A stretch of DNA of 64,000 bases from Coriobacteriales bacterium (lineage in GTDB: Bacteria; Actinomycetota; Coriobacteriia; Coriobacteriales; UBA8131). Below, piece after piece: positions 14,483-61,467 of the stretch (positions are counted from its first letter, which is position 1; the number at the start of each line of letters is the position of its first letter). The notes under the pieces are model-generated. The model was not told the DNA's origin, searched no databases, and saw nothing but the letters and a program-made list of their open reading frames with translations. Location of the stretch: assembly GCA_031264075.1 (NCBI GenBank), contig JAISEO010000060.1, forward strand, positions 6,354 to 70,353, in the 5' to 3' direction. A program made the translations under genes and the position numbers.

Positions 14483-14612
14483 ATTCTCAACCTTTCTGTT
14501 CTGCCTGCATGCTTACCTATCCAGTATATATGAATGCGTTACGTAATGCAACACTATGTATTGCATCAATGCCAACCAGCCAATCAGCACCCTTTGTGGT
14601 ATAACCATACCT

Positions 14613-15632
14613 ATGCGCACACGAACTGACCGAGAGCAGCAGGAAAACCAGAACCTCAGCGCCTTTGCGGCCCTGAGCGATGCTGCCACGCGCGTGCATT
14701 CCGAGCCGCCCGATGAGTTCCGCACGGCCTTTCAGCGCGACCGCGACCGCATCATCCACTGCAAGGCATTCCGGCGGCTCAAGCATAAGACCCAGGTGTT
14801 CATGGCTCCCGAAGGCGACCATTACCGCACGCGTCTCACGCATACCCTGGAGGTGTCGCAGATCTCGCGTTCCATAGCAACGGCTCTGGCGCTCAACGAG
14901 GATCTCACCGAGGCCATCGCCATGGGCCACGACCTCGGCCACACCCCCTATGGCCATGCTGGCGAGGAGGCTCTGGCGCGCTGTCTGTCCGCGAGGCGGG
15001 GCGAGCCCTACGACCCCAGGGCCCCGCTGTTCAAGCACTCTCGCCAGTCATTACGCGTCGTGGATGTCATAGAGCGCGACGGGCAGGGGCTCAACCTCAC
15101 CAACGAGACACGCGACGGCATCGTCCACCACAGCGGCAGCGAGAAGGCCGCCACGCTGGAGGGACGCATCGTTGCCACGGCCGACCGCATCGCCTACATC
15201 AACCACGACATCGACGACGCCATGCGTGCGGGCATCATCGTGGAAAGCGACCTGCCACTCTCCACGCATACCGTGCTGGGCAACTCGCACTCTGCGCGCA
15301 TCACCACGCTGGTCAGTGATATGATCACCCATTCCGACGGCACGGGCGACATCGGCATGAGTGAGCGGGTCTGGGAGGTGATGATGGAGCTGAGGGCCTT
15401 CCTCTTCGAGCACGTCTACCGGCTGGATAACGCCAGGCGGGCCGAGGAGCCCCGGGCCCTTGAGATCGTCAGCGCACTGTTCTCGTACTACCTCGAGCAC
15501 CCCGAGGCCCTGCCCGAGCGTACCCTGGCAATAGCCGGAGGCAGCACGGAGCAGGCGGTGGTGGACCATGTTGCCTCGATGACCGACAACTATGCCACGG
15601 CGGACTATCAGCGTCTGAGACTCGCCGGGTAG
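14613..15632 (+). CDS. dgt: dGTP triphosphohydrolase-like HD-domain protein
   Basis: Start at MRTRTDRE (ATG 14613). Motifs FQRDRDRIIHCKAFRRLKHKTQVF, HYRTRLTHTLEVSQISR and GHDLGHTPYGHAGE. Confidence 0.85.
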   Translation: MRTRTDREQQENQNLSAFAALSDAATRVHSEPPDEFRTAFQRDRDRIIHCKAFRRLKHKTQVFMAPEGDHYRTRLTHTLEVSQISRSIATALALNEDLTEAIAMGHDLGHTPYGHAGEEALARCLSARRGEPYDPRAPLFKHSRQSLRVVDVIERDGQGLNLTNETRDGIVHHSGSEKAATLEGRIVATADRIAYINHDIDDAMRAGIIVESDLPLSTHTVLGNSHSARITTLVSDMITHSDGTGDIGMSERVWEVMMELRAFLFEHVYRLDNARRAEEPRALEIVSALFSYYLEHPEALPERTLAIAGGSTEQAVVDHVASMTDNYATADYQRLRLAG

Positions 15633-35155: not shown

Positions 35156-38100
35156 ATGTACCTCAAATCACTCGTCATAAAGGGTTTCAAGTCCTTCGCG
35201 GATCGCACGGCGGTCAACTTTGAGCCGGGCATTTCTGTGATAGTCGGGCCCAACGGATCCGGCAAATCGAATATCTCCGAGGCGGTTCTGTGGGTGCTCG
35301 GCGAGCGGAACCCCCGCAACCTGCGTGTGCAGTCCCTGGAGGAGCTTATCTTCTCCGGTTCGAGCGCTCGTGAGGCCGTCGGCGTCGCCGAGGTTGACCT
35401 GGTTTTGGACAATTCGGACAACACCCTGCCCATTGAGTTTGATCAGGTCTCTATCTCGCGTCGCATGTACCGCAGCGGCGAGAGCGAGTACTTCATCAAT
35501 AAGACGCCCTGCCGCCGTCGCGACATCATCGACATACTCTACGACTCCGGCATCGGCGGCACGGTCAACTCCATCATCAGCCAGGGCAACCTCACCGCCA
35601 TCCTGGAGTCACGCCCCGAGGATCGCCACGCGCTCTTGGAGGACGCCGCCGGCATCCTCAAACATAAGAAGCGCAAGGAGGCCGCCGGGCGCAAGCTCGA
35701 CCGCATGGACGCTACGCTGGAACGCGTCGGCGACATCATCCGCGTCATAGAACAGCAGCTTCGTCCTTTGGAGCGTCAGGCAAAGCGGGCCGAGAAGTAT
35801 GCCGAGGTCAAGCGTGAGCTGCGGGACATCGACCTGGCACTCGCGGTTGACGAACTACGCAGCCTTCAGGCAGAGTGGAACAGGCTCTCAGGGGGTATAC
35901 GGGAGATTGACGCAGAGGCCGAACTCGCGAACTTTCGCCTGTCGGAGCGCGAGGCCGAGCTGGCAAAGCGCCAACACGCCCTGGAAGAGAAGGGGCTGTT
36001 CGTCGGCGACATCAATGAGCAGCGTATCCGCGTGCTCTCCATCATCCAGCGGCTTGACGCCACGATGCTGCTCCTGGAGGAAAAAGGCAGGAATATGGTG
36101 GCGCGCATCAGCGATCTGCGCTCGACCATCTATAACTCCGAGGCACGGCTCGGCGAGGCTGAGACCGAGCTCAAGCAGCTGGCCCTGGACTTCTCGGCGG
36201 GCGAGGGACGCCTGGCAGCGCTCTACACCAGCTTCAACGATCTCACGCGCGAGTCCGAAGGCATCACCAAAAACCGCCGTGAGGTAGAGACAGGTTATGA
36301 GCGCGTCCATGCCAAGCTGCATTCGCAGGAGAGCGCCCTTGCGGCCACCAGGAGCAATCTGACCCGCACCACCGAATCGCTCTCCTCGCTTGACCTGGAG
36401 GAAGGACTGCTGAAGGAGCGGGCCGAGCAGGTGGCAGAGGAACTCGCCGCCTGCCAGGAGCTTAAGGTGGAACGTGAGGAGGCTGTCCGTGCGGCACAGC
36501 AGGAGCTGCAAAAGCTCGGACGTGAGGCAGGGCTCTCCCAAAACGAAATTGAAAAGCAGCTCCGCCTGCTTGACGAGCGCAAGACGCGCCTGGAGGCCAA
36601 AACTACCGAGCTCATCAATACCCGGGCCCGACTCAGCAGCCTCGAAGAGGTGGACCGTGCCATGGAGGCGGCTTCTCCGGCGCTCAACTGGGCAGTGGAG
36701 AACAAGGCGCGTCACCGGGGCATTGTCGGGCGACTCTCGGATTCTCTGCACGTGGAGCTTGGCCGGACACTGCCGTTTGGGATGAGAACCGAGGAGATGG
36801 AGGGCCTTGTCGAGCGCCTGCTCGGCTCGGACTTCTTTGCCCTGCTGGTTGCCGACAACGACGCCGGACGCGAGCTTGTCGTGCATCTGAGTGAGCTGGC
36901 ACGCTCTGAAAGCAAGGACGGACCGGCCAATTCCGCGCTGGCGATACTGCCTCTGGTGGGCATGAGCGCTCCCGTGCAGAAGTCTGAACGTGGCGAGCGT
37001 CTCATCGACTATCTGGCCTACCCGCCCCGCGAGTATGAGGCCATGGCCGCGTTACTCGGCGACGTCTACCTGGTAGCCAACGTGGACGAGGCCATCAAAA
37101 ATCATCTCACCGATCATACGGGTGCCCGCTTCATCACACCGGATGGGCAGATTGTCTGGCCCAACGGCAAACTGACGGTGGGCTTCATGTTGGGCGATGT
37201 GGACGGGGTTCTTGAGCGGCGCAGGGATATCGACCGGTTCACAGACGATGTTGAACTCAAGTCCGCCGAAGTGGCCGATGTTGAGCTGGAAGTCTCTGAG
37301 ACCGAGCAGAAGCTGGAAGAAGCCCAGGGCGCGAGCCTGGATATCGCGCAGCTTGAGGCCAAGGCCCAGGCCGGGCTGGAGAGCGCCGAGCAGGAACTGG
37401 AACGCTTGGAAAAGACCCTCCACCAGCTGGAGCTACGCGAGACAGAGGCCGCGCGCAAGCTACAGGATGTGGCCCGCAGAAGGGACGTAGCTGCTCCCCT
37501 GGCGGGAGAATACAGCGAACGCATTGCCGTGTTGGAAACAGACATCGAGAGGCTTACCGAAGAAGCGGAGCGGGCCTCAAAGCAGCTCCTGGCCGCCACA
37601 GAGGAGAAAAACGCCATCTCCGAACGCCTTACGGAGTGCAAGATAGACCTGGAAGCAAACAAGGGCACGCAGGCCCATTTGACGAGCCGCATGAAGGCCC
37701 TCGAAACCCTGATGGCGGGGCTCAGCACCACGGTGGAGGTCTCTGCACAAACGGCGGGTTCCCTTGATCTCATCCATCTCCGCATAGACCCGCTCTACAA
37801 GCTGTATCAGGAACTGCACGCCGGGGCCAGTAGCTGGGCCGAGCGCCTGCACGACCAGGCCCTGTTGGAGCAGACCGACTCCGCCAACCTCCGGGAGATA
37901 ATCAATGAGGCCACCGAGGCTGCCCAGGATGCCCGCGATGCCCTGGCAGAGATAAACGAACGTCGCACGGCGGTACTCGTTGAGCAGGGCAAGCTGGAGA
38001 GCAGCGTGCAACACGCCATGCAGCGTATCATCTCAGAACATGAGACCTCTCTGGAGGCAGCCCTGGAGTTGCCTTCTGTTGAAGACCGCGTGAGCGCCGA

Positions 38101-38905
38101 AGAGCGTGCCTGTCGTCTTCGCTCGCAGATAGCCAATCTCGGTGCCATCAATCAGGTGGCGATGGAGGAATATGCGGCGCTCAGGGGCCGCCGCGACTAT
38201 ATGAATGAACAGATTGCCGATCTGACCGAGGCGCGCAAATCGCTGGCCAAGATCTCTCAGGCGCTGGACAAAAAGATGCGCAATCAGTTCCTCGAGACCT
38301 TCAACAGGGTCAATATGAACTTCCAGGAGATCATCGGCATCCTCTTTCCGGGAGGCAGGGGTGAGCTTATCCTCACGCAGGGCGACGATCCCGACCAACA
38401 GGGTATCGAGGTCAGTGCCCAGCCCGAGGGCAAGAGAATACTCAAGCTCTCCATGATGAGCGGGGGAGAAAAGTCGCTCGTGGCGCTCACGCTGATGTTT
38501 GCGGTGTACAGTATCCGCAAGGTGCCCTTCTATGTGCTTGACGAGGTGGATGCTGCGCTTGACGACACCAACCTGCTCCGTCTGCTCGACTACCTCAACC
38601 ACCTTCGTACCGATACGCAGCTCATCATGGTGAGTCATCAACGCCGCACCATGGAAACCGCCGACATACTCTACGGTGTAACGATGCAGGCGGCTGGGGT
38701 CTCCAAGCTGGTGAGCCAGCGTTTGGATCAGGCCATGGGCTACGCCTCACAGGATGTTGCGGGCAATGAGTCGGGCGAGCAAGCTGCTGCTGAGCAAGCT
38801 GTTGAGGAGTCAGCTGCTGAGGAGCAGGACGCAAAGCCTGCCGCCGCCAGCTCAGATGCCAAAGACAGCGCCGCTTCACCCACCAAGGCAAAAAAGGGCA
38901 GATAG
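35156..38905 (+). CDS. smc: Chromosome segregation protein SMC
   Basis: 1249 aa. N-terminal MYLKSLVIKGFKSFADRT...GPNGSGKSN, long coiled coils, a hinge, and C-terminal LSGGEKSL..LTLMFA...PFYVLDEVDAALD. Confidence 0.95.
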   Translation: MYLKSLVIKGFKSFADRTAVNFEPGISVIVGPNGSGKSNISEAVLWVLGERNPRNLRVQSLEELIFSGSSAREAVGVAEVDLVLDNSDNTLPIEFDQVSISRRMYRSGESEYFINKTPCRRRDIIDILYDSGIGGTVNSIISQGNLTAILESRPEDRHALLEDAAGILKHKKRKEAAGRKLDRMDATLERVGDIIRVIEQQLRPLERQAKRAEKYAEVKRELRDIDLALAVDELRSLQAEWNRLSGGIREIDAEAELANFRLSEREAELAKRQHALEEKGLFVGDINEQRIRVLSIIQRLDATMLLLEEKGRNMVARISDLRSTIYNSEARLGEAETELKQLALDFSAGEGRLAALYTSFNDLTRESEGITKNRREVETGYERVHAKLHSQESALAATRSNLTRTTESLSSLDLEEGLLKERAEQVAEELAACQELKVEREEAVRAAQQELQKLGREAGLSQNEIEKQLRLLDERKTRLEAKTTELINTRARLSSLEEVDRAMEAASPALNWAVENKARHRGIVGRLSDSLHVELGRTLPFGMRTEEMEGLVERLLGSDFFALLVADNDAGRELVVHLSELARSESKDGPANSALAILPLVGMSAPVQKSERGERLIDYLAYPPREYEAMAALLGDVYLVANVDEAIKNHLTDHTGARFITPDGQIVWPNGKLTVGFMLGDVDGVLERRRDIDRFTDDVELKSAEVADVELEVSETEQKLEEAQGASLDIAQLEAKAQAGLESAEQELERLEKTLHQLELRETEAARKLQDVARRRDVAAPLAGEYSERIAVLETDIERLTEEAERASKQLLAATEEKNAISERLTECKIDLEANKGTQAHLTSRMKALETLMAGLSTTVEVSAQTAGSLDLIHLRIDPLYKLYQELHAGASSWAERLHDQALLEQTDSANLREIINEATEAAQDARDALAEINERRTAVLVEQGKLESSVQHAMQRIISEHETSLEAALELPSVEDRVSAEERACRLRSQIANLGAINQVAMEEYAALRGRRDYMNEQIADLTEARKSLAKISQALDKKMRNQFLETFNRVNMNFQEIIGILFPGGRGELILTQGDDPDQQGIEVSAQPEGKRILKLSMMSGGEKSLVALTLMFAVYSIRKVPFYVLDEVDAALDDTNLLRLLDYLNHLRTDTQLIMVSHQRRTMETADILYGVTMQAAGVSKLVSQRLDQAMGYASQDVAGNESGEQAAAEQAVEESAAEEQDAKPAAASSDAKDSAASPTKAKKGR

Positions 38906-51604: not shown

Positions 51605-52828
51605 TCACCCCAGCGGCTCATACCTCTTTCGCAAGGCGAGATAACAGAGTATCCCCACGGCGCACAGCACCGCCGCAGCCAGGAAGAGACTGCCGTAGCC
51701 TACGACATCTACGAACAGGCCCAACACCAGCGCCCCCGCGCCAGCACCCACATCAAAGCCGATCATCGCCGTGGCCATGGCACGCCCGCGGCGCTCGGGC
51801 TCTATTCCCTTGGCACTCATGGCATAGAAGGTGGAAAAGCTTGAGCTGTGCCCGATGCCCTGGAGGAGCGCCGCTACCAGCAACAGGGGCAGACTGTAGC
51901 AAAAGGCAAGCAGTGCCATCCCCAGTCCCAGGCAGACAAGCCCGGTGATGACCGGCCACTTGAAGCCCGCACGGTCGGTCCAGCGGCCAAAGAGCGGGCG
52001 GGCAATAACGGCGCAGACGGCAGAGAGCGCAAAGAATGCCGCTATACCCTCCACCCCACGCACTTCCAGCATGGTGGGCAAAAAGGTGGTGAGCACGCCG
52101 TAGGCGCAGGCGAGAAAGAACATCAGCAAGGCGGCCAGGAGCGCACGTCTGTCCAGAAGGCCTGAGATGGTGCGCCGCAGCGAGAACGGGCCTGTGTTTG
52201 GTCGGGTATGCGTCCTGGGTATTGTTCGGTAGCTGATACAGCAGCTGAGCAGCAGCGACAGTACGAAGAAGAAGCCGCAGATAAGGCAGGAGTATACCCC
52301 TCCAACAGCGTAGAACACCGTAAGTGAGATGGCCGGAGCGATAATCAGGGCGAGCGAGTTGGTCATGCCCAGAAAGCCGAAGCCCTCGGCATGGCGCTCA
52401 GCCGGGATGTTGTCGGCACCAACAGCACTCGTGGCTGTGTTGGCCGCTCCCCAGGCAAGCCCCTGGATGAAACGGAGCGCGATAATGACGCCCACGAGGG
52501 GAAAGAGCGCAAAGCCGATACAGGTCAGTATCATGCCCACGGTGCCGCAGACGAGCACGCCGCGCCTGCCATAGTAATCCACGGCAGCGCCCGAGACAGG
52601 TCGCGCAACGAGCGATGCCACAGAAAAGACCCCGGCAACCGTGCCCAGCAGGTAGTCCGGGGCACCCAACGAGCGGATGAAGACCGGCATCATCGAAGGC
52701 AGCATCTGCATACCGACGAAGTTGAGGAAGTTCACCGAGATGGCAAGGATGAAACCTCGTGTCCACAGCGGCTGCGGAGAGCGTCTGATCATCGCGTAGT
52801 TCTCAGGGGTGGTCAGGGTTGCCTGCAC
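51605..52828 (-). CDS. MFS transporter
   Basis: 407 aa with 12 predicted hydrophobic segments. The loop motif GAAVDYYGRRGVL resembles MFS motif A. Start ambiguous (GTG 52828 or ATG 52792). Confidence 0.85.
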   Translation of the reverse strand: MQATLTTPENYAMIRRSPQPLWTRGFILAISVNFLNFVGMQMLPSMMPVFIRSLGAPDYLLGTVAGVFSVASLVARPVSGAAVDYYGRRGVLVCGTVGMILTCIGFALFPLVGVIIALRFIQGLAWGAANTATSAVGADNIPAERHAEGFGFLGMTNSLALIIAPAISLTVFYAVGGVYSCLICGFFFVLSLLLSCCISYRTIPRTHTRPNTGPFSLRRTISGLLDRRALLAALLMFFLACAYGVLTTFLPTMLEVRGVEGIAAFFALSAVCAVIARPLFGRWTDRAGFKWPVITGLVCLGLGMALLAFCYSLPLLLVAALLQGIGHSSSFSTFYAMSAKGIEPERRGRAMATAMIGFDVGAGAGALVLGLFVDVVGYGSLFLAAAVLCAVGILCYLALRKRYEPLG

Positions 52829-52839
52829 AGCAACGCTTG

Positions 52840-54048
52840 TCAGGGCACAAGAAACTCATCCAGAGATGCTTGCTCGTCTTCTTCAAAGGTGATATGGCCC
52901 AATTTTCCTACCTGTATCTCACCCACCTCGCCGTAGAGGTAGAGTTGGTCGAGCAGCTCGATGGCGGCGCGGATACGGGTGCGCAGCAGATAGCCGTAGC
53001 GGTCGGTTGCCACGAGGAAGTCCTTGCTCTCCATCTGTGGTTCCCACCCAAAGGCGCGGCCATGACAGGCGAGTATCCCCGAGAGGATCTCGGCGGTCTC
53101 TTCGCGGTTCAGCGGTGCGAGTTGGGTGGCCCTTACTATGCTATTGAGTAGAGCTGTGATGGTGGCCTTTTCTGCAGGAGTGAGCCTCTCGTTCTTGTCC
53201 AACTCATCGTGCTCGTGCTTGCCCTCAATGACGTCGGGAACAAACGATGCGTTAAACGCGAACAGCGCAAAGCTGTGTTCCAGCTTCTCGCCAGCAAGAA
53301 AGCGGTTCATGTTGAGATAGGCTTTCTGTCTGGACTTTCTTCCCAGTCGTCCCACCAGCTCGGCTTCGTCAAAGAGGATAACCCAACCCTCGTACTCCTG
53401 CGTCCTGAACAGCTGTGAGAGGAAGCTGAGATAGTCGCCCATGTGTCGCGTCTTGACAAAGTTGGTGTTGAACGCTGCGGTCTCGCCAAAGACACGCCGA
53501 TAGACCTTGCGTACCCCCGCAGAGGTCATGAAGTCTCCTGCTATATCGGCGGCGAGCAGATACTTCTCATCGTCATCTTTCGTGCCCAGATACGACTTGA
53601 GCACATAGTAGAGCTTGTTGGTTTCCAGATGGGTGAGGCAGTATTCAAGCAACGCTGAGGTCGAGCGAGACCCCAGCGACAACTGCTCCAGTACCTGCGA
53701 CACTCCCGGCTGGATGCTTCCCGGCAGGTAGGTTCCCTGCACTATCTTCGCGTACAACTGTGGCAGGTTGGAAAGCGGCGCCTCTTTGCTGAGCGTCACG
53801 GTGCTCACCACCAAGTTCTGTTGATGGGCACGGTTAAACACCATGTTGAGCAGGTGCGTCTTGCCTTCCCCGTATTTTGCCGAGATGATCCTACCGGACG
53901 AGCCTTTGTCCGTGGCTACGGCCTCCAGCGCTTCGTCTATCTCGCCGAGTATCTTCGGTCTGGCGGAAGAGAAATATCGGCCCACCTCAAAGGACGAGAC
54001 ACCGGAGCGCAGTGCCTCGATTATCCTGCGGGCATCAAATTCATTCAT
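52840..54048 (-). CDS. P-loop ATPase, BrxD/DUF2791-like (BREX-type ATP-binding domain)
   Basis: Start at MNEFDARRIIEALRSGVSSFEVG (ATG 54048; GAGGGGG SD 6 nt upstream; ATGAATGA 8-nt overlap with the upstream gene). Walker A AKYGEGKTH and Walker B WVILFDEAE. The N-terminal RIIEALRSGV motif is what I recall for PF10923-type proteins. Confidence 0.65.
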   Translation of the reverse strand: MNEFDARRIIEALRSGVSSFEVGRYFSSARPKILGEIDEALEAVATDKGSSGRIISAKYGEGKTHLLNMVFNRAHQQNLVVSTVTLSKEAPLSNLPQLYAKIVQGTYLPGSIQPGVSQVLEQLSLGSRSTSALLEYCLTHLETNKLYYVLKSYLGTKDDDEKYLLAADIAGDFMTSAGVRKVYRRVFGETAAFNTNFVKTRHMGDYLSFLSQLFRTQEYEGWVILFDEAELVGRLGRKSRQKAYLNMNRFLAGEKLEHSFALFAFNASFVPDVIEGKHEHDELDKNERLTPAEKATITALLNSIVRATQLAPLNREETAEILSGILACHGRAFGWEPQMESKDFLVATDRYGYLLRTRIRAAIELLDQLYLYGEVGEIQVGKLGHITFEEDEQASLDEFLVP

Positions 54049-55120
54049 GTTCTGCCCCCTCAAGCTGTCTGGCCACCTTGTTCAGATCGATGATGTCGGC
54101 AAATCGGTTTACCCTGCTGCTGCTTATCTCGTTTTGGATGCGCATCCAGAGCGCCTGGTATGATTTCAGCCCCCGCGTCTCGTCTTCCAGCAGGCTTGCA
54201 TCCATCGCAAACACGATGATGAAATAGCCCAGCGCATCAATGCCGTCGATGAGCTCACGGATGCTTTCATAAGCATCCTCACGACGCATCTTCGTGTAGC
54301 GGATTTCCTCCAGAACCGAGGTCTCTGCCAGCATCTCCAAATTATCCACTGCCACCGCAATGCCGGCAAAGCCTGCAAGCCTCACGACTTCCAACAGCGA
54401 ATACAACATATGCCGCGCATTCTGGCGCGTGATACGCGAGGGAGAAAGCCCCAGTCTGCGCAAGCTGGCCACGCGGACACCCTTATCGCCCCAAAGCCAC
54501 CTGAGCAGTTGCTCTTCCGACTCGCTTTCCAGCGCGGGATAGCCCAGATACCCGCTGGTGATAAGCGCCGATGCTATGGCAAAGTTGCTGTCTATGTTGC
54601 GGTTCTCGAAAAACAACCTGCTCAGCTGAGCCCGTATCTCCCGCTTCGTGAGCGGATCAAGCGAGCCGGTCATCTGCAGGAAGTCCACAAAGCGCATGCC
54701 CTCCGGGATGTCGCTCTGGTCATAGCCCATAGCTTCTATCACCTGGTTTGCACAGGCCCGCATACAGCCCTCAAAATCTATCGACGAGAAGATGGCGGCG
54801 TAGATGTCCCTGAAGTCATGGAGCCAGGTTCCCTTGCCACTGATGAAGGTTGTCTTATAGCCACTGGCTGCTGCATCGCTCAGATAGTGTCGCAGGCAGG
54901 CCGATTTACCGCTTTCCGCAGCGCCGGTGAGGAACTTTATCTTACTGCCGCCCTGTGCTATGAAGGTTTCCAGATACTGCTCCGTCCAGAACCTGGAGAC
55001 ATACTGAGCGCACTCTTCCTTACTGCGCAGAGCAGCTCGCGCAGTTGCTTCCGTGGTGCCCATAGCTACGACTGGATCATTATCCATCAAGCGCGTATCT
55101 ACCATCGACTCATCGTCCAT
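54041..55120 (-). CDS. Second P-loop NTPase, distant paralog-like partner of the BrxD-like ATPase
   Basis: Start at ATG 55120 (GGGAGG 7 nt upstream). Walker A FLTGAAESGKSA. The Walker B-like strand IAVAVDNLE has Asn in place of the catalytic Glu position. Confidence 0.55.
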   Translation of the reverse strand: MDDESMVDTRLMDNDPVVAMGTTEATARAALRSKEECAQYVSRFWTEQYLETFIAQGGSKIKFLTGAAESGKSACLRHYLSDAAASGYKTTFISGKGTWLHDFRDIYAAIFSSIDFEGCMRACANQVIEAMGYDQSDIPEGMRFVDFLQMTGSLDPLTKREIRAQLSRLFFENRNIDSNFAIASALITSGYLGYPALESESEEQLLRWLWGDKGVRVASLRRLGLSPSRITRQNARHMLYSLLEVVRLAGFAGIAVAVDNLEMLAETSVLEEIRYTKMRREDAYESIRELIDGIDALGYFIIVFAMDASLLEDETRGLKSYQALWMRIQNEISSSRVNRFADIIDLNKVARQLEGAEHE

Positions 55121-55174
55121 CAAGCAACCTCCCTGTCCTCATCCTCAATCTCACCATTGTTCGTTTAGCTTTTA

Positions 55175-55957
55175 TCAGTCGGTAAAGAAGCGCACCGTTG
55201 CGATGAACAACTCGCTGCCATAGGCATCAAGGATGCGTATGGCCCGGTTGTTGTTGCGGCTCGGCCCAAACTGTATCCGCCGGCCGTCCGCAAGCACCAC
55301 GTCCTCGGCGCTGTACAACCGGGCAAGGTCAAACGCAAAGGCTCTCGCGTCGTAGTCTCTCCTGAAGCGCCGCATGGGAGTGAGGTACTTGTAGAGAGTG
55401 CTCAGATAGACGTCGGCGTCCATCACCGGCTTTTTGCCCTTGGCAGTGGCGATGATTGCCAGGTCGTAGGCCGCCGCCAGTTCGGCAGCAAATTGAACGG
55501 CATTAAACGACGCGGAAAGGAGCTTGGCCTTTCCGGCTTCCAGCATGTTGGCTATGGCTGCTGGCCTGAGCCCAGGTGCCTTTCTCCCGTTGATGAGCAC
55601 ATCCTCGTTTGAGGGGTCAATCTTGAGGCGATACGGGAATATCTCGTATGAGTTTCCTTCCCCGACGATGTCGATGCCGCGCTTGTCGCATTCTTCCACT
55701 AACTGCTCAGCAAAATCCCCTGATGCGAGGTAGGTGGCAGCATCAAAGCCCGTTACAGCGTCCGCAAGGGTGCCGATGTTGAGCGCCATCTCCTCAGCAG
55801 CTGCAGCAATGGCGGCGATGTCCTTTTCCGCCCCTCTGACGTCACCGTTCTCGATGCTCTTGCCTATTCGCCTCTGAAGCCTTTGCTGTAAGGCAATGCC
55901 TGCCCTGAGCTTTTCAGCGGTATCTGTACATTCGTCATGAAACGATTCAAAATCCAC
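55175..55957 (-). CDS. Hypothetical 260-aa protein, first gene of the ATPase operon, no family recognised
   Basis: Start proposed at GTG 55957 (AAGGAGG then 4 nt). The ORF-track start at 56044 lacks an SD. Helical Ala/Glu-rich N-half. No TM segment, no TerB-like motif visible. Confidence 0.5.
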   Translation of the reverse strand: MDFESFHDECTDTAEKLRAGIALQQRLQRRIGKSIENGDVRGAEKDIAAIAAAAEEMALNIGTLADAVTGFDAATYLASGDFAEQLVEECDKRGIDIVGEGNSYEIFPYRLKIDPSNEDVLINGRKAPGLRPAAIANMLEAGKAKLLSASFNAVQFAAELAAAYDLAIIATAKGKKPVMDADVYLSTLYKYLTPMRRFRRDYDARAFAFDLARLYSAEDVVLADGRRIQFGPSRNNNRAIRILDAYGSELFIATVRFFTD

Positions 55958-56088
55958 TTTGCCTCCTTGTTCAGATGAGTTTGCGACGCAAGCCGCAGAA
56001 ATAATCCACAGTCTGACGTTGCAGTATCCACTCGATGTTTTCAAAGGGAGACTATAGCATATTCGGGTAGACTATAAGGGAAAGGCGT

Positions 56089-56130
56089 GGGATTTGAGAG
56101 GGATTGAGAGAAATTGAGAGATTCGGAGGA
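56089..56130. promoter_or_regulatory. Phased 10-bp tandem repeat (RRATTGAGAG x3 plus a decayed fourth) in the divergent control region of the ATPase operon and helicase gene
   Basis: gggatttgagag / ggattgagag / aaattgagag / attcggagga. Preceded by a direct repeat AGACTATA...AGACTATA (56049-56078). Confidence 0.4.
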
Positions 56131-57882
56131 AAGGTGCGGGAACTTGCAGGAATCACTCTGTACGATTGGCAGGAACGCTGCCTTGATTCCTGGGCAGCAA
56201 ACGGGTATCGCGGCACGGTGAGTGTCGCAACCGGCGCCGGTAAGACGGTACTGGCGCTCGCTGCAATCAGGCTGCTGTTAAACGGGCCGATATATTCCGA
56301 GGGCAAACAGCTCAGTGTCAAGATCATCGTTCCCCGGATATTCCTTGCGCAGCAGTGGCGAGCGGAAATCATCAGGATTCTGGGGATTCCCTCTGAACAG
56401 ATAGGTCTGTACTACGGAGCACAGAAATGCGACCCCTCGCTCCCCTTTGTGATATACGTCCTTGACTCCGCACGCCATAACGTTGCCCGTCACATCCTTG
56501 CTGATGTCAAGGCAAACACCGGAGGCGACGTCATCGAGGGAGCCAGTGCCGTTTGTACGAGTGGAGCCAACACAGAACGTTCCGTATTCCTTATCTGCGA
56601 CGAGGTTCATCACTTTGGCAGCACGGAGAATGCGCACGTCTTTGACTTTGTTGGGCACATCCCCGACTCGCACTACTTTGCGCTCGGGCTTTCTGCGACG
56701 CCACACTGCGAGCATTTCAATGACCGGATAGCTCCGGCGATAGGTGGCATCATCTTCACCTATGACATCGAGCGGGCCAGCACAGAGAGCATCACGGCAA
56801 GCTATCACCTGTTCAGGGTAGCGGTAGACCTTAACAGCGGCGAGTTCGACCGCTATGACGAACTCACCGATACCATCGCGCGCGTGAGCGCCCGTCTTGC
56901 CACGCGCTGCCCTGAGCTCAGAAGGCTTAGAGGACGGGAGTTCTTTGCTTTCGTGCGTCGTCTTGCCAACCAGGACGGACCTGTGGCTCCGCTCGCGCGC
57001 AGCCTGCTTTCGCTCATCCTTAAACGCAGAGCCGTGGTGATACTTGCCGCCTCCCGCAATACCTGCGCCCTTGATCTCCTTTCCCGCCTGCCTTACGACA
57101 CACGGATCATCCTGTTCAGCGAGCGGATACGTTCTGACGATGAACTCTTCACCAGGCTTGAGGCGCTGTATCCGGGACGCGCCAGTCGCTATCACAGCCT
57201 CATGGAACCTGAGACCAGGCAGCGGGCACTGGAAGCTTACCGCAGTGGGCAGACACCGGTGATCGTCTGCTGTCGCGCGTTAGACGAGGGGCTCGACGTG
57301 CCCTTGACCGACATGGGCTTCATCGTGTCGAGCGGCACCAACCTCCGACAGCGCGTCCAACGCATGGGGAGGATACTCCGGAAGAGCAACACAGCTCAGC
57401 CCAAGCGTATCTTCTACCTATATGTTCCCTCGACCACCGAGAACCCCGAGCTGCTTTGGTCTGATGAGGCTGATAGGGAGGGAAATGCTGGTACTGTTGC
57501 CGTGCCAGTTGAGCTTGCCGGATCAGATGAAGCCTTTGAAGGGGCAGGGGAGAAGGGGACACCTTCTGCCTCTAGGGTCATCGAATCAACAGGTTTTGAT
57601 CTGCACTATGATGGCTTTAGTCAGTCTTTGGTCAACGAAGATTACGATGAAATCGCCGCCCGGGTCATGGCCGCGCTTACGAGCAGGAAAGCCTCGCCGC
57701 AGCAACTCAAAGCGGCCAGCAAGCAGCTCCGCCGGGGAGCGATAGCGCTTGATTACCTGATGGAGGAGTCCGAGTGCCGCGCACTCCTCAACAGGGCCGT
57801 GCGTGAGGAGAAGGCGTATCTGCAGACCATGCTCCTCATGATACAGGAGGCTGCCAAAGGCATGGGTACTGTTGGGGAATGA
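56104..57882 (+). CDS. Superfamily-2 helicase (ResIII/ERCC3-like DEAH-type) with a ~130-aa C-terminal extension
   Basis: Motif I VATGAGKT, Ia IIVPRIFLAQQW, II LICDEVHHF, III GLSATP, V CCRALDEGLDVP, VI QRVQRMGRILR. Start uncertain (TTG 56104 or GTG 56134). Confidence 0.85.
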   Translation: MREIERFGGKVRELAGITLYDWQERCLDSWAANGYRGTVSVATGAGKTVLALAAIRLLLNGPIYSEGKQLSVKIIVPRIFLAQQWRAEIIRILGIPSEQIGLYYGAQKCDPSLPFVIYVLDSARHNVARHILADVKANTGGDVIEGASAVCTSGANTERSVFLICDEVHHFGSTENAHVFDFVGHIPDSHYFALGLSATPHCEHFNDRIAPAIGGIIFTYDIERASTESITASYHLFRVAVDLNSGEFDRYDELTDTIARVSARLATRCPELRRLRGREFFAFVRRLANQDGPVAPLARSLLSLILKRRAVVILAASRNTCALDLLSRLPYDTRIILFSERIRSDDELFTRLEALYPGRASRYHSLMEPETRQRALEAYRSGQTPVIVCCRALDEGLDVPLTDMGFIVSSGTNLRQRVQRMGRILRKSNTAQPKRIFYLYVPSTTENPELLWSDEADREGNAGTVAVPVELAGSDEAFEGAGEKGTPSASRVIESTGFDLHYDGFSQSLVNEDYDEIAARVMAALTSRKASPQQLKAASKQLRRGAIALDYLMEESECRALLNRAVREEKAYLQTMLLMIQEAAKGMGTVGE

Positions 57883-58022: not shown

Positions 58023-59003
58023 TTGGATTCAGGAATTGACAGAATACTCAACCAGCCAGTTGAGATGATCGGCAAGATCGATCTTTCAGGCTATCCTCGA
58101 TTTTACAGCACAGACTACGATATCAGCCATATAAGAATCGGTTCGGTCGATTGTATCTTGATCAAGACTGAAGGTGTTATCAAGCTGCCCGCTATTATAA
58201 AGATGGTGCAGTTTCTTGAATCCAAGAATAGTATGCCCTGCATAATCTCGACGTCAAAGCTCACCGATTATCAAAAGAAACGACTCTCAGAGCTTGGTAT
58301 CGCCTATATTATTTCGCCCAACAATCTCTACATTCCCTTTCTGGGGATATCGATTCTGCAATCGAAGAACAGGACGGAACCTATCACGAGCCTCTCTCCA
58401 CAGGCGCAGTACCTTGCATTGCACATCATCGATGGAAGCTGGGTTGGACTGAATGCAACCGCCGTGGCCCGCACAATGAAAAAGAGCTTGCCAAGCATCA
58501 GCAACTACTTCAAGGAAATCGAAGCTACCGTGCCCCAAGTCATCGACAGGTGCGGAACCAGGAAAGTCCTTGTGAATGACGGTGTCCTCTCCAGGGGAGA
58601 ACTATTCAGGTTGTTTGAGCCTTACCTCACAACTCCAGTGAAAGACTCATTCTATGCGAAATTCAAAGGAAGGCAACGCAGCTTGATCGACCATGGATAT
58701 CTTTACGCTGGCATCAGTGCCCTCAGCAAAACGACGATGCTTGTCGACTCTCCCTGGAAAACCTATGCCACCTCAGAATACGAGCGAAGCGATTCAGGCG
58801 AATTTGCAAGTGGCTTGACTGTTGTTACCGTTGACGACGATCCTGATATCCTCCTGCAGATATGGAAATACCCACCACAGGATAGCGGTGATGATACCGT
58901 TGATGATATATCACTCTATCTGTCTCTCAAGGATAGTCCTCAACTGGAGGATCCTCGAGGCGAAGAAGCTCTGGCGGGCCTGCTTGAGAGGATTGCTGGA
59001 TGA
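58023..59003 (+). CDS. Putative wHTH protein, antitoxin-like partner of the downstream nucleotidyltransferase (AbiEi-like role)
   Basis: 326 aa. Central HTH-like segment LSPQAQYLALHIIDGSWVGLNATAVARTMKKSLPSISNYFKEIE. ATGA overlap with the next gene. TTG start uncertain. Family assignment is weak. Confidence 0.4.
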   Translation: MDSGIDRILNQPVEMIGKIDLSGYPRFYSTDYDISHIRIGSVDCILIKTEGVIKLPAIIKMVQFLESKNSMPCIISTSKLTDYQKKRLSELGIAYIISPNNLYIPFLGISILQSKNRTEPITSLSPQAQYLALHIIDGSWVGLNATAVARTMKKSLPSISNYFKEIEATVPQVIDRCGTRKVLVNDGVLSRGELFRLFEPYLTTPVKDSFYAKFKGRQRSLIDHGYLYAGISALSKTTMLVDSPWKTYATSEYERSDSGEFASGLTVVTVDDDPDILLQIWKYPPQDSGDDTVDDISLYLSLKDSPQLEDPRGEEALAGLLERIAG

Positions 59004-59755
59004 GCGTAGAAGGTCTCGAATTGTTCAGACAGCGTTTTGCTCCCTACTCAGACGCTTATGTGCTGATAGGAGGCAGTGCTTGCGATCTGCTATTCTCTGA
59101 ACAAGGCATGGACTTTCGAGCAACCCATGACCTCGATATCGTAGTTCTGGTTGATAAGCCTCTTTCTGGTTTTGCCAAGACGCTTTGGCAATTCATCAAT
59201 GACGGCGATTATCTCTGCGGTTGGCGTAACAACCCGGATGTTCACTATTATCGCTTTACTGAGCCTAAGAGTCCTGGGTTTCCAAGGATGATTGAGCTTT
59301 TTGCTCGGCATCCAGGATTTCCCTTACGTGACGAAGCCTCATATATTGTGCCTCTGCCGGTCAATGATGATATTTCCAGCCTATCCGCCATTCTCCTTGA
59401 TGATGACTACTATGAGTTCTTAAAAAGCAGTCTATCTACCATTAATGGGATCAATGTGCCCGATGTAGCGCACCTGATCCCTCTGAAAGCCCGTGCTCAC
59501 ATAGACCTGAGTGAAAGAAAAGATGCAGGACAGCATGTGAACTCTACTGACCTCAAGAAGCACAAAAAGGATGTTGTCAGCTTGGTTTCCATAGTACCTG
59601 TCAACGTTCATATCGAACTGAGTTCCCAGATGAAAGAAGACATGAAGCGATTCGTCGGCACTCTGCGACAGGAAGGAGCGCAAAGTAACCAGACCAGACC
59701 AGGATTGCCCCTGCAAGGAGCACTTGATGCGCTTGAAGATATATACAACCTTTAA
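59000..59755 (+). CDS. Nucleotidyltransferase-fold protein, AbiEii/AbiGii-like toxin
   Basis: YVLIGGSACDLLFSEQGMDFRATHDLDIVVLV shows the G[GS]x9-13 D.D NTase motif. The downstream IPLKARAHIDL is typical of AbiEii/DUF1814-type proteins. Confidence 0.6.
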   Translation: MSVEGLELFRQRFAPYSDAYVLIGGSACDLLFSEQGMDFRATHDLDIVVLVDKPLSGFAKTLWQFINDGDYLCGWRNNPDVHYYRFTEPKSPGFPRMIELFARHPGFPLRDEASYIVPLPVNDDISSLSAILLDDDYYEFLKSSLSTINGINVPDVAHLIPLKARAHIDLSERKDAGQHVNSTDLKKHKKDVVSLVSIVPVNVHIELSSQMKEDMKRFVGTLRQEGAQSNQTRPGLPLQGALDALEDIYNL

Positions 59756-59829
59756 CGGGCTCTGAGAGGCAAGTGTTATTCTGAAGAAACATCTGACGCA
59801 TTTCTGTCTTTCCGGTAGAAATGACTTAA

Positions 59830-60072
59830 TGTTCAACACTAACAATCAACATCTCTAGGGCTACAAGAAGTGGTGCGATTTGCAGTCTTGAGCGTATGCT
59901 TGTCGAGTTGATGCGGAATAGTGCCAACATGCCTCTCGATTATTACAAGGAGGTCACTTCATCTTATTGCAAAAGAATTGATGCCATGGACATGCGAGCA
60001 GTCGAGGATTACATGAATCTATTTGAGCGCAATGACTATATGTGGGACATTCTCTACAAAGAGATACTTTAA
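59830..60072 (+). pseudogene. C-terminal fragment of an AbiEi-type antitoxin gene
   Basis: Frame open from 59830 to TAA 60070-60072: ...ICSLERMLVELMRNSANMPLDYYKEV...FERNDYMWDILYKEIL*. This resembles the AbiEi C-terminal region (..ERTL.DL.R..). There is no N-terminal wHTH part, and the stop overlaps the next fragment (TAATG). Confidence 0.4.
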
Positions 60073-60368
60073 TGGATCTGAGCGAGATACGTCAGAGCTA
60101 CGTTGATGATGGCATTGATTTTGAGAATGCAAATGCCAGGACGGCACAAGATGTGATGCTTGACATGATCTCTTCCTCCTCGATGGCAGACAAGGTGACC
60201 GTCAAAGCCGGTGTCGTGATGCAGCACCTTTCACATGATAATCGTAGAACATCTGTGGATATTTACGTTGTACAATGTGGGTATGACGGGTTGTATTCGC
60301 GAAGTGCAAAAGAGAAAAACCTCCACTGTATCGACATCAGTTCAGGTGTTGTCTGTGACAGAGCCTAG
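60072..60368 (+). pseudogene. N-terminal fragment of an AbiEii-type nucleotidyltransferase toxin gene
   Basis: MDLSEIRQSYVDDGIDFENANARTAQDVMLDMISSSSMADKVTVKAGVVMQHLSHDNRRTSVDIYV matches the AbiEii N-terminal pattern (..L.FKGGTAL......R.S.DIDF) and then loses similarity. The ORF ends after 98 aa. Confidence 0.45.
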
Positions 60369-60438
60369 CGTACAGGTCAATAGGATAGCGAGAAATCAGT
60401 ACAGGCAATTTGTAGTTTCATCCAGATACGAGGTCTCA

Positions 60439-61467
60439 ATGATTATTGAAAGCATTTTAGTCTTCCTACTCTATTTCATCGGAGCATTTCTTTTGTTTCT
60501 AATCGTGAACGCAGTTGGGCCACGTATGGCTTCACAATATAGGGATATACTGACTGATATGAACGATTCAGAGCGTTCATTTAATGCTATTTATCGTATT
60601 GTTGCACCAGTGGTTATTTGGTGTTTGTTTGCCAGTCTATTGAAGCTTCTTGGTATCAGCATCGGGGTTGAATCGTTTTCAGTTTTTATTTTCTATTGGA
60701 TCATCCGGTTGGCCAGTCTTTTTCTTTTTAATAAGATTCGTAGAGGATATCTTCTCGGTTTCTTTTGGCGCGTTGTGGCAAGCTGCTTGCTTGGATACTA
60801 TTTTACTTTTAACATTATATCTGTAGACGCCAATTTGCTTATACCTGAAACAAGCGATGTCGTTTTTCAATTTTGGCTGGTCTTTGCGCTTGCAATTGTC
60901 TCAGTCGTGTCGAGAGCTGGCAGCCAAGCGAGATATGATTTTGAAAAGCAGTTTCACGAAATTAGACGTCTCGCTAATGGGCTATTACCAAAAAGATTCA
61001 AGGAAGATTTCGTTTTGCAAGCCTTATTCTACTCCTTCGCCACGATCGAAGATTATTATCGACCATCTCCGATTAGGCGAATGGAACGGTTGGCTCACCG
61101 CTTCGGCCTAGCTGAAACTACTGGCATCATGCAGGTTAAATCATCTAGGCCACTGAGCGACAAAGAAAGTATATTAGCATCTGTGCCAATAATAGAGGAT
61201 ATCTGGGATGATTATTTAAAGAAATCGAAACCTGTTGGCGATCTTGAGCATTTCACGGTCAAAGAAGGGTCATACAGCTACAGATTTGGGGAGTTGCTTA
61301 ATCAAGTTCGGGTTGACTTCGATTCGATACATGCAAACTATATGGGTACCGTGCATTTTAATGGGGTGAACTTTTTTAATAATGCATCTTTCTATATTAG
61401 GTGCCAGGATTATATATCTGATGAGAGCGAGGTGATTGTGGAAACGTCGAGAGCTGAGATTTGTTAG
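60439..61467 (+). CDS. Hypothetical membrane protein (5-6 TM N-half, soluble C-half), low-GC
   Basis: Start at MIIESILVFLLYF (ATG 60439). About 40% G+C. The C-half contains ...RFGLAETTGIMQVKS..., faintly reminiscent of the SLT E...GLMQ motif. No confident family. Confidence 0.5.
   Translation: MIIESILVFLLYFIGAFLLFLIVNAVGPRMASQYRDILTDMNDSERSFNAIYRIVAPVVIWCLFASLLKLLGISIGVESFSVFIFYWIIRLASLFLFNKIRRGYLLGFFWRVVASCLLGYYFTFNIISVDANLLIPETSDVVFQFWLVFALAIVSVVSRAGSQARYDFEKQFHEIRRLANGLLPKRFKEDFVLQALFYSFATIEDYYRPSPIRRMERLAHRFGLAETTGIMQVKSSRPLSDKESILASVPIIEDIWDDYLKKSKPVGDLEHFTVKEGSYSYRFGELLNQVRVDFDSIHANYMGTVHFNGVNFFNNASFYIRCQDYISDESEVIVETSRAEIC

Follow-up and report, generated by a model that had tools for sequence, protein, structure and literature searches.

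A four-gene cassette with a divergently encoded helicase

We analysed a 64,000-nucleotide stretch of DNA from a Coriobacteriales bacterium (assembly GCA_031264075.1, contig JAISEO010000060.1, positions 6,354 to 70,353), referred to below as the window. An earlier reading of the bare sequence (the original prediction) had pointed to a cassette of four genes at positions 52840-57882. The six-frame list of open reading frames (ORFs) contained all four genes as placed by that reading. On the minus strand are the gene for a protein of 260 amino acids (aa), which we call U260, and the genes for two nucleoside triphosphatases, NTPase A and NTPase B. On the plus strand is the gene for a helicase (Table 1). 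The Walker and helicase motifs quoted in the prediction were recovered by translation, as was the 8-nucleotide (nt) stretch ATGAATGA common to the NTPase A stop and the NTPase B start. This overlap suggests translational coupling of the two ATPase genes.

The helicase gene encodes a superfamily 2 (SF2) protein and ends at 57882 as first read, but its length of 592 aa, counted from TTG 56104, did not stand. The start is most likely GTG 56134: a GGAGG sequence (56125-56129) lies 5 nt ahead of it, homologues have matching N-termini, and NCBI uses the same start in its 582-aa call MDR1088605.1. With the helicase starting there, the divergent control region spans 176 base pairs (bp) instead of the ~150 bp first estimated. 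Within it, a ~10-nt motif of the ATTGAGAG type occurs in three tandem copies at 56093-56122. The copies, ATTTGAGAG, GGATTGAGAG and AAATTGAGAG, stand directly upstream of the helicase Shine-Dalgarno sequence and may represent an operator, a translational element, or chance. In related loci the gap between the helicase and U260 genes is short, and its sequence is not conserved and not alignable across clades. We also noticed near-identical 16-nt contexts 5' of the NTPase B start (54072-54087) and of the U260 start (55961-55976), reading ATCTGAACAAGG(A/T)GGC on the minus strand. These may be common translation-initiation signals or a coincidence.

The cassette has a G+C content of 56.1%, compared with 61.1% in the 13 kb upstream of it and 44.6% in the block that adjoins it at 58023-61467. 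The cassette thus lies below the core, as had been claimed, although the hand count of 53-55% was slightly low. A major facilitator superfamily (MFS) transporter gene on the same strand as the NTPases (51605-52828, 61.8% G+C) begins 11 nt past the NTPase B stop, so the left edge of the cassette directly abuts a core gene. Read-through transcription from NTPase B into the MFS gene is possible.

Table 1. Positions of the cassette genes, their ATPase motifs and the adjoining low-G+C block in the window.
Feature	Position	Strand	Description
NTPase B	52840-54048	-	402 aa
NTPase B Walker B	53365-53382	-	VILFDE, by translation; D227 and E228 invariant (74/74)
NTPase B Walker A	53857-53880	-	AKYGEGKT, by translation; invariant in the family
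NTPase A	54041-55120	-	359 aa; ATG start preceded by GGGAGG
NTPase A degenerate Walker B	54335-54355	-	VAVDNLE, by translation
NTPase A Walker A	54902-54925	-	GAAESGKS, by translation
U260	55175-55957	-	260 aa; GTG start at 55957, Shine-Dalgarno sequence AAGGAGG 6 nt upstream
Divergent control region	55958-56133		176 bp; 45.5% G+C
Helicase	56134-57882	+	582 aa from GTG 56134; 592 aa if from TTG 56104
Low-G+C block	58023-61467		three ORFs of 326, 251 and 410 aa; 44.6% G+C, down to 39%

An asymmetric pair of BrxD-type ATPases

Both NTPases matched the Pfam family PF10923 (BrxC_BrxD) well above its gathering cut-off of 22.2 bits, with 90.9 bits (1.1e-25) for NTPase A and 82.2 bits (4.7e-23) for NTPase B. 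The BrxC/BrxD (DUF2791) affinity originally noted for NTPase B therefore held, and NTPase A shares it. For both proteins the PADLOC model of BrxD (1.4e-18 for NTPase A, 1.6e-14 for NTPase B) outscored that of SngB (7.3e-12 and 2.4e-12). The NCBIfam equivalog NF033438 (BREX_BrxD) gave 62.4 and 51.8 bits for the two NTPases, far under its cut-off of 350, which indicates that they belong to the same Pfam family as BrxD and are not its orthologues. Identity between NTPase A and NTPase B was only ~20-25%. The two are thus old paralogues: the ATPase is duplicated, as had been stated, but the duplication is not recent.

The prediction had further suggested that the pair is asymmetric, with one catalytically weakened subunit, and the homologues bore out the asymmetry. 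Among those of NTPase B, the GEGKT Walker A motif was present in all 74 (one with S for T), and the Walker B D-E pair, also kept in 74/74, was followed by an invariant E..GR. NTPase A homologues likewise kept Walker A (GK[TS] in 78/78). The residue after their Walker B aspartate was D in 60 sequences, N in 16 (including this window), E in one and K in one, so that D, N or K replaced the catalytic glutamate in 77 of the 78. Judged from these alignments, a canonical ATPase and a subunit without the canonical catalytic glutamate form a fixed pair.

The AlphaFold2 model of NTPase B (predicted local distance difference test score, pLDDT, 84.8) found BrxC of Acinetobacter BREX as its top match in the PDB, with an E-value of 8.4e-4. 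The next folds were RdrA, a Cdc6/Orc1 heterodimer on origin DNA, Hda, ORC subunits, TnsC, MuB and DnaA. TM-scores were low (0.3-0.4), so the modelled fold supports a place in the initiator/loader ORC/Cdc6 clade and no closer kinship. Heteromeric Cdc6/Orc1 pairs such as that in PDB 2qby, which the model matched, bind DNA. Published work also assigns BrxD to the ORC/Cdc6 clade of AAA+ proteins (PMC12839542), in agreement with the fold result.

An XPB/Rad25-like helicase without a nuclease domain

The helicase carries the motifs TGAGKT, DEVH and QRVQRMGRILR and matched ResIII (2.8e-15) and Helicase_C (4e-14) in Pfam. It is an SF2 protein of the XPB/Rad25-ResIII type, and its closest solved relatives are archaeal XPB/Rad25 proteins (7e-21). 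Motifs I, II, III and VI were invariant in 70 homologues. The DEVH box of the original prediction is present in the window copy but peculiar to it, the family consensus of motif II being DECH. A C-terminal extension of ~95 aa is kept across the family, and the protein has no nuclease domain.

In PADLOC the helicase matched 24 families at E<=0.1. The best of these was PbeA (2e-56), matched over profile positions 249-627 of 672 only. The NCBIfam model TIGR04095 scored 1.3e-46. Models of BrxHI matched residues 363-431 only (67 residues, 1.8e-5), and the NCBIfam equivalog repair_heli_XPB reached 49.8 bits against a cut-off of 610.

U260, a so far unannotated protein family

As a single sequence or as a profile, U260 had no match in Pfam, PADLOC 2.0, NCBIfam (June 2026), PHROGs or PDB sequences, and Pfam and PADLOC remained without a match at E<=0.1. 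A distant relative likewise had no PADLOC match. The AlphaFold2 model (pLDDT 88.6) has a long helical hairpin (residues 3-70) followed by a C-terminal alpha/beta domain, and a Foldseek search with it gave no significant match in the PDB or BFVD. Judged by these searches, the third component is novel, as had been claimed. A word-indexed search found 280 homologues. An exhaustive profile search extended the family to 631 clusters at 50% identity, chiefly from gut and anaerobic-digester Firmicutes, Spirochaetes and Synergistetes. Nearly all are stand-alone proteins of 255-280 aa. The sole long match (P0184, 646 aa), considered for what a fusion might reveal about function, proved to be a rhamnosidase chimera and was set aside.

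In a wide-family alignment of 103 sequences, only P108, F156, Y164, Y202, D210 and G247 were at least 95% conserved. This alignment holds no catalytic constellation, which makes an enzymatic role unlikely. The C-terminal domain is rich in conserved arginine and aromatic residues, and in the narrower clade R131, R197, R199, R213, R234, R241 and R256 are invariant. In the model, the C-terminal elements run in the order helix (185-192), helix (204-216) and hairpin (227-243), an arrangement that would be compatible with a DNA-binding unit of winged-helix type. BrxD-type ATPases are reported to have no DNA-binding domains of their own (PMC12839542). On the strength of the model, U260 may supply such a domain in trans, with its helical hairpin used for dimerisation or docking. 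We predict that U260 has no enzymatic activity and serves the ATPase pair as an adaptor or DNA-binding partner.

Two other identities for U260 were considered and rejected. A divergent TerB protein is contradicted by 35 family members that gave no match to TerB, TerB_N or TerB_C among the families listed at E<=1 and by the lack of a PADLOC SngA match, so the earlier statement that the third component has no recognisable TerB domain stands. A nuclease is unsupported: MutH and Mrr folds appeared only as weak, insignificant Foldseek matches (ranks 4-18, E>1, in one search; rank 11 in another), and the 103-sequence alignment shows no (D/E)xK motif.

Conservation and spread of the cassette

One genome per species was scanned with search patterns, ~185,000 species genomes altogether, and U260 relatives were found in 260 of them. 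In the 80 loci that we fetched, a tblastn search with the window proteins as queries detected the full set of four genes in 70, nearly always in the same order and with the helicase divergent, and these loci came from several phyla. The four genes therefore co-occur elsewhere, as would be expected of a functional unit of the kind proposed. Eight of the ten other loci end at a contig boundary, and two (L004 and L078) have no helicase in the sequence covered. Locus L004 adjoins a PDDEXK_2 transposase-like gene. Among the 70, the helicase has shrunk to a 42-aa remnant in one locus (L010) and lies in the opposite orientation in another (L072). In two loci (L024 and L057) an insertion of 2.6-3.2 kb separates the helicase gene from that of U260. 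Identity of U260 among the loci was 40-60%.

The hosts are mostly Lachnospiraceae. The others include Oscillospiraceae, Eubacteriales Family XIII, Peptococcaceae, Desulfosporosinus, Synergistaceae, Spirochaetales/Sphaerochaeta and the termite-gut Coriobacteriales metagenome-assembled genome (MAG) to which the window belongs. One complete cassette (L077, JAMPFK010000006.1) is on a contig that carries the label of a Bacteroides fragilis MAG, whereas Firmicutes, Spirochaetes and Synergistetes make up nearly all other hosts. This host label could reflect horizontal transfer or a binning error. All-versus-all clustering of the ORFs in the 80 loci gave no fifth conserved gene; the next real family after the four occurred in 11 of the 80 loci and resembles an ABC ATPase. 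The phyletic spread is patchy and the flanks are variable. Together with a G+C content of 56.1% against 61.1% in the core, these are signs that the cassette was horizontally acquired.

A triad core with an exchangeable helicase

The contigs of distant U260 relatives were looked up at profile E-values from 1e-19 to 1e-47. In seven of eight look-ups, U260 was directly followed by one or more BrxC_BrxD genes, often with overlapping stop and start codons, and in five of them both BrxC_BrxD genes were visible. For P0233 (L092, L093) one BrxC_BrxD gene precedes the contig end, for P0206 (L091) the gene downstream of U260 has no Pfam record, and the 3-kb contig of P0240 (L094) has no BrxC_BrxD gene.

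The helicase partners in these distant loci differ. One locus (L081) has a 706-aa SNF2 helicase fused to Mrr_cat, another (L084) a 1144-aa SNF2 helicase with DUF3670, and two more (L089, L090) a minimal 481-aa SNF2 helicase in convergent orientation. In a further locus (L086) the helicase lies upstream and is most like MkoA of Mokosh. The best PADLOC likeness of the SNF2 partners was to ZorD and DpdE. In the SNF2-Mrr variant, an extra 162-aa protein without a Pfam or PADLOC match is encoded between ATPase B and the helicase-nuclease (L081, 3670-4158; also in L082). It may be a clade-specific fifth component.

The deeper conserved unit is thus the triad of U260, ATPase A and ATPase B, and the helicase is interchangeable. 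A constant triad with a swapped helicase, in one case carrying a nuclease, is typical of defence systems, and we regard this as the strongest indirect argument for a defence function.

Comparison with named defence systems

None of the four genes was placed in a named system by PADLOC 2.0 or NCBIfam (June 2026), and full-text literature searches returned no description of the cassette. The original prediction had likewise matched it to no named architecture. All of our checks that could have refuted that prediction came out in favour of it. The window proteins are publicly named 'hypothetical', 'ATP-binding protein' and 'DEAD/DEAH box helicase family protein' ('superfamily II DNA or RNA helicase' at JGI), and some homologues bear the name 'DUF2791 family P-loop'.

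Shango consists of the TerB protein SngA, the ATPase SngB and the helicase SngC (Millman et al. 2022, bioRxiv 10.1101/2022.05.11.491447). Like Shango, the cassette is compact and combines a BrxD/SngB-family ATPase with a helicase and a third, non-enzymatic protein, and both NTPases matched the SngB (DUF2791) model of PADLOC. Unlike Shango, it has two divergent ATPase paralogues in place of one and a divergently transcribed helicase. U260 has none of the TerB, TerB_N or TerB_C domains expected of SngA, and the helicase is XPB/PbeA-like, SngC not being among its 24 PADLOC families.

For type 2 BREX (bacteriophage exclusion), a role of BrxD in loading or activating BrxHI has been proposed (PMC12839542). 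The cassette resembles this BrxD-BrxHI dyad of type 2 BREX/Pgl in that a stand-alone BrxD-type ATPase, a member of the ORC/Cdc6 clade, is encoded in tight linkage with an SF2 helicase, and BrxD was the top PADLOC and NCBIfam match for both NTPases. It differs in that the ATPase is an asymmetric pair accompanied by U260, the helicase is not Ski2/Lhr-like as BrxHI is, and the BrxD equivalog scores (62.4 and 51.8 bits) fall far short of 350. PglX, PglZ, PglW and BrxC were absent from the 47 other ORFs of the window (E<=1e-8), and none was conserved in the 80 loci. The cassette and its window therefore do not contain the BREX core (BrxC/PglY, PglX, PglZ, PglW), in line with the earlier claim that PglX, PglZ and PglW are missing.

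MANTIS (Gao_RL) comprises the DUF499 AAA+ protein MtsA, the co-regulator MtsB, the methyltransferase MtsC and the helicase-nuclease MtsD. There, MtsA, of the ORC/Cdc6 clade, and MtsB load a partner on DNA, and the MtsABC complex triggers MtsD (10.64898/2026.09.23.753747). The logic is the same as the one we propose for the cassette. The components differ: the cassette lacks a methyltransferase and, in the clade of the window, a nuclease as well, its ATPases are of the BrxD type and not DUF499, and U260 appeared unrelated to DUF3780/MtsB in the searches made (no PADLOC match).

Among defence systems, the cassette helicase has its nearest relative in the helicase part of PbeA, a protein that joins an HKD nuclease to an SF2 helicase (PMC10853773). 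PbeA belongs to the CxC-ABC-ATPase system PbeABCD (PMC6459918, reannotated in PMC10853773), in which PbeC is the CxC ABC ATPase and PbeD is DndE-like. A non-cleaving outcome was reported for this system (PMC6459918), an interpretation disputed in PMC10853773. In contrast to PbeA, the cassette helicase has no N-terminal HKD nuclease, and the 176-bp gap leaves no space for one. Pfam and PADLOC also gave no PLD/HKD, PbeC or PbeD match in the cassette, and PbeB, PbeC, PbeD and dnd genes are absent. ATPase-helicase defence modules built on BrxD/SngB-type AAA+ proteins are known, and the U260 partner family and the fixed asymmetric ATPase pair are new.

Genes adjoining the cassette

The low-G+C block to the right of the cassette is a second, separate acquired module. 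Its first two ORFs (58023-59003 and 59000-59755) overlap by 4 nt and are annotated by NCBI as hypothetical (LBL23_04985, LBL23_04990); neither matched a PDB sequence. All three ORFs of the block were without a match in Pfam, PADLOC, NCBIfam and PHROGs, which leaves the earlier label of abortive-infection or toxin-antitoxin genes for this neighbourhood unconfirmed. A GGSA...DLDIVV stretch in the 251-aa protein resembles a nucleotidyltransferase, by eye only.

An SMC-like protein of 1249 aa (35156-38902) alone accounts for the mad3, LmuB, GajA, AriA and AbiLi matches of PADLOC in the window. Since this one protein fires five models, matches of this sort inflate defence counts. The remaining PADLOC matches in the window included a dGTPase-like protein (14556-15629), ShosA/PsyrA and mad2. 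Among the genes flanking the cassette in the 80 loci, two sorts of match were not accepted as defence genes. Matches to DrmC coincide with cardiolipin-synthase-type PLDc_N proteins and are probably cardiolipin synthases, and those of the mad3/LmuB/GajA type are generic ABC/SMC matches, the mad3 ones probably to ABC ATPases.

Proposed function and alternative explanations

Taken together, these findings most probably make the cassette a hitherto undescribed module related to the phage-defence systems Shango and BREX type 2, the defence role being one that we infer from its genes and their contexts. We further consider it reasonably probable that it is a self-contained, horizontally mobile four-gene immunity module that targets nucleic acids and is of the same general kind as Shango and BrxD-BrxHI. 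In such a module, NTPase A and NTPase B, as paralogues of the ORC/Cdc6 clade of AAA+ proteins, would assemble with U260 into an asymmetric complex. NTPase B would hydrolyse ATP; NTPase A would bind ATP, hydrolyse it poorly and serve as a regulatory subunit. The helical hairpin of U260 would dimerise or bridge, and its arginine-rich C-terminal domain would provide in trans the DNA-contact surface that BrxD-type ATPases lack. Recognition of invader DNA or of a replication intermediate would lead the complex to load or activate the divergently encoded XPB-like double-stranded DNA translocase, and the translocase would then interfere with replication or transcription of the invader. As no nuclease is encoded in this clade, the effector step would be carried by the translocase only or would depend on host factors. 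In sister clades the triad has SNF2 helicases as partners, including one with a fused Mrr nuclease, and the outcome there is probably DNA cleavage. The logic of this mechanism follows the precedents of BrxD-BrxHI (PMC12839542), MANTIS (10.64898/2026.09.23.753747) and Cdc6/Orc1 pairs (PDB 2qby).

A bolder version, which we offer tentatively and hold to be rather doubtful, makes the triad the core of a widespread unnamed immune family. The triad would be a 'licensing' machine that senses foreign DNA and loads exchangeable helicases (XPB-like, SNF2, SNF2-Mrr or MkoA-like), and in the clade of the window the translocase alone would restrict the invader, with neither nuclease nor DNA modification.

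Several observations weigh against a mobile defence module. This clade encodes no nuclease, toxin or modification enzyme, which leaves both self/non-self discrimination and the killing step unaccounted for. Of the cassette's direct neighbours in the 80 loci, 134 genes in all, the majority have housekeeping roles, and an uncontrolled count of PADLOC matches gave no more than about 10 convincing defence genes among them. These include DpdF (4e-204), a type II restriction endonuclease (4e-132), PsyrT (2e-108), PDC-M19B, PDC-S01, PDC-M45B, capP and a few others. Finally, relatives of U260 were not found in 72,556 plasmids, in 50,697 phages or in IMG/VR.

Some of these points would suit a housekeeping-like module for DNA repair or replication restart, in which an XPB-type helicase, a loader-like AAA+ pair and an adaptor act on the host chromosome. 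The helicase has its closest solved relatives among the archaeal DNA-repair proteins XPB/Rad25 and matches repair_heli_XPB weakly, neither a nuclease nor a toxin is encoded, many flanking genes are housekeeping genes, and the cassette is chromosomal and was not found in the plasmid and phage collections searched. We nevertheless think this explanation unlikely. The XPB equivalog score of 49.8 bits is far from the cut-off of 610, and an occurrence in 260 of ~185,000 species genomes with variable flanks is unlike a core repair pathway. Moreover, the helicases that accompany the triad are of defence types, one of them with a fused nuclease, and the family of its ATPases is known only from BREX and Shango.

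It is also quite unlikely that the cassette is a system that already has a name, whether a divergent Shango, a remnant of BREX type 2 or a system that received its name later than the libraries used here. PADLOC 2.0 dates from 2023, its SngB and BrxD models match both ATPases, and an ATPase with a helicase and a third protein is the layout of Shango. Against this, U260 has no TerB-family match (35 members, families listed at E<=1) and no SngA match, the helicase has no SngC match, and PglX, PglZ, PglW and BrxC are missing from the window, with BrxD equivalog scores of about 62 and 52 bits versus 350. NCBIfam of June 2026 has no model of U260, and the full-text literature searches gave no description.

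Least probable is a module by which an integrated mobile element initiates its replication or maintains itself, the ORC/Cdc6-like initiators and their helicase serving that element: the NTPase B fold is nearest to replication initiators and loaders (Cdc6/Orc1, ORC, DnaA and Hda, and also TnsC and MuB), G+C is below that of the surrounding core and the flanks vary, but neither replication-origin repeats nor genes for an integrase, relaxase or transposase recur alongside the cassette, its flanks hold no direct repeats, no tRNA that could be a target and no Rfam elements, the plasmid, phage and IMG/VR searches gave no match, and the cassette, just 5 kb long, stands alone in many contexts.

Read as a relative of Shango and BREX type 2, the cassette bears on BrxD and SngB, which are among the least understood parts of those systems. 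It places the same type of ATPase in a minimal four-gene setting, where an intact and a degenerate subunit form a fixed pair that has its own partner protein, with different helicases in different clades, and so amounts to a natural experiment on the role of the ATPase. It also gives a function-linked context to the so far unannotated U260 family with its 631 clusters. If the loader model is true, the cassette would be a compact system in which to reconstitute ATPase-dependent helicase loading in immunity, and it could show defence working without a nuclease or a methyltransferase.

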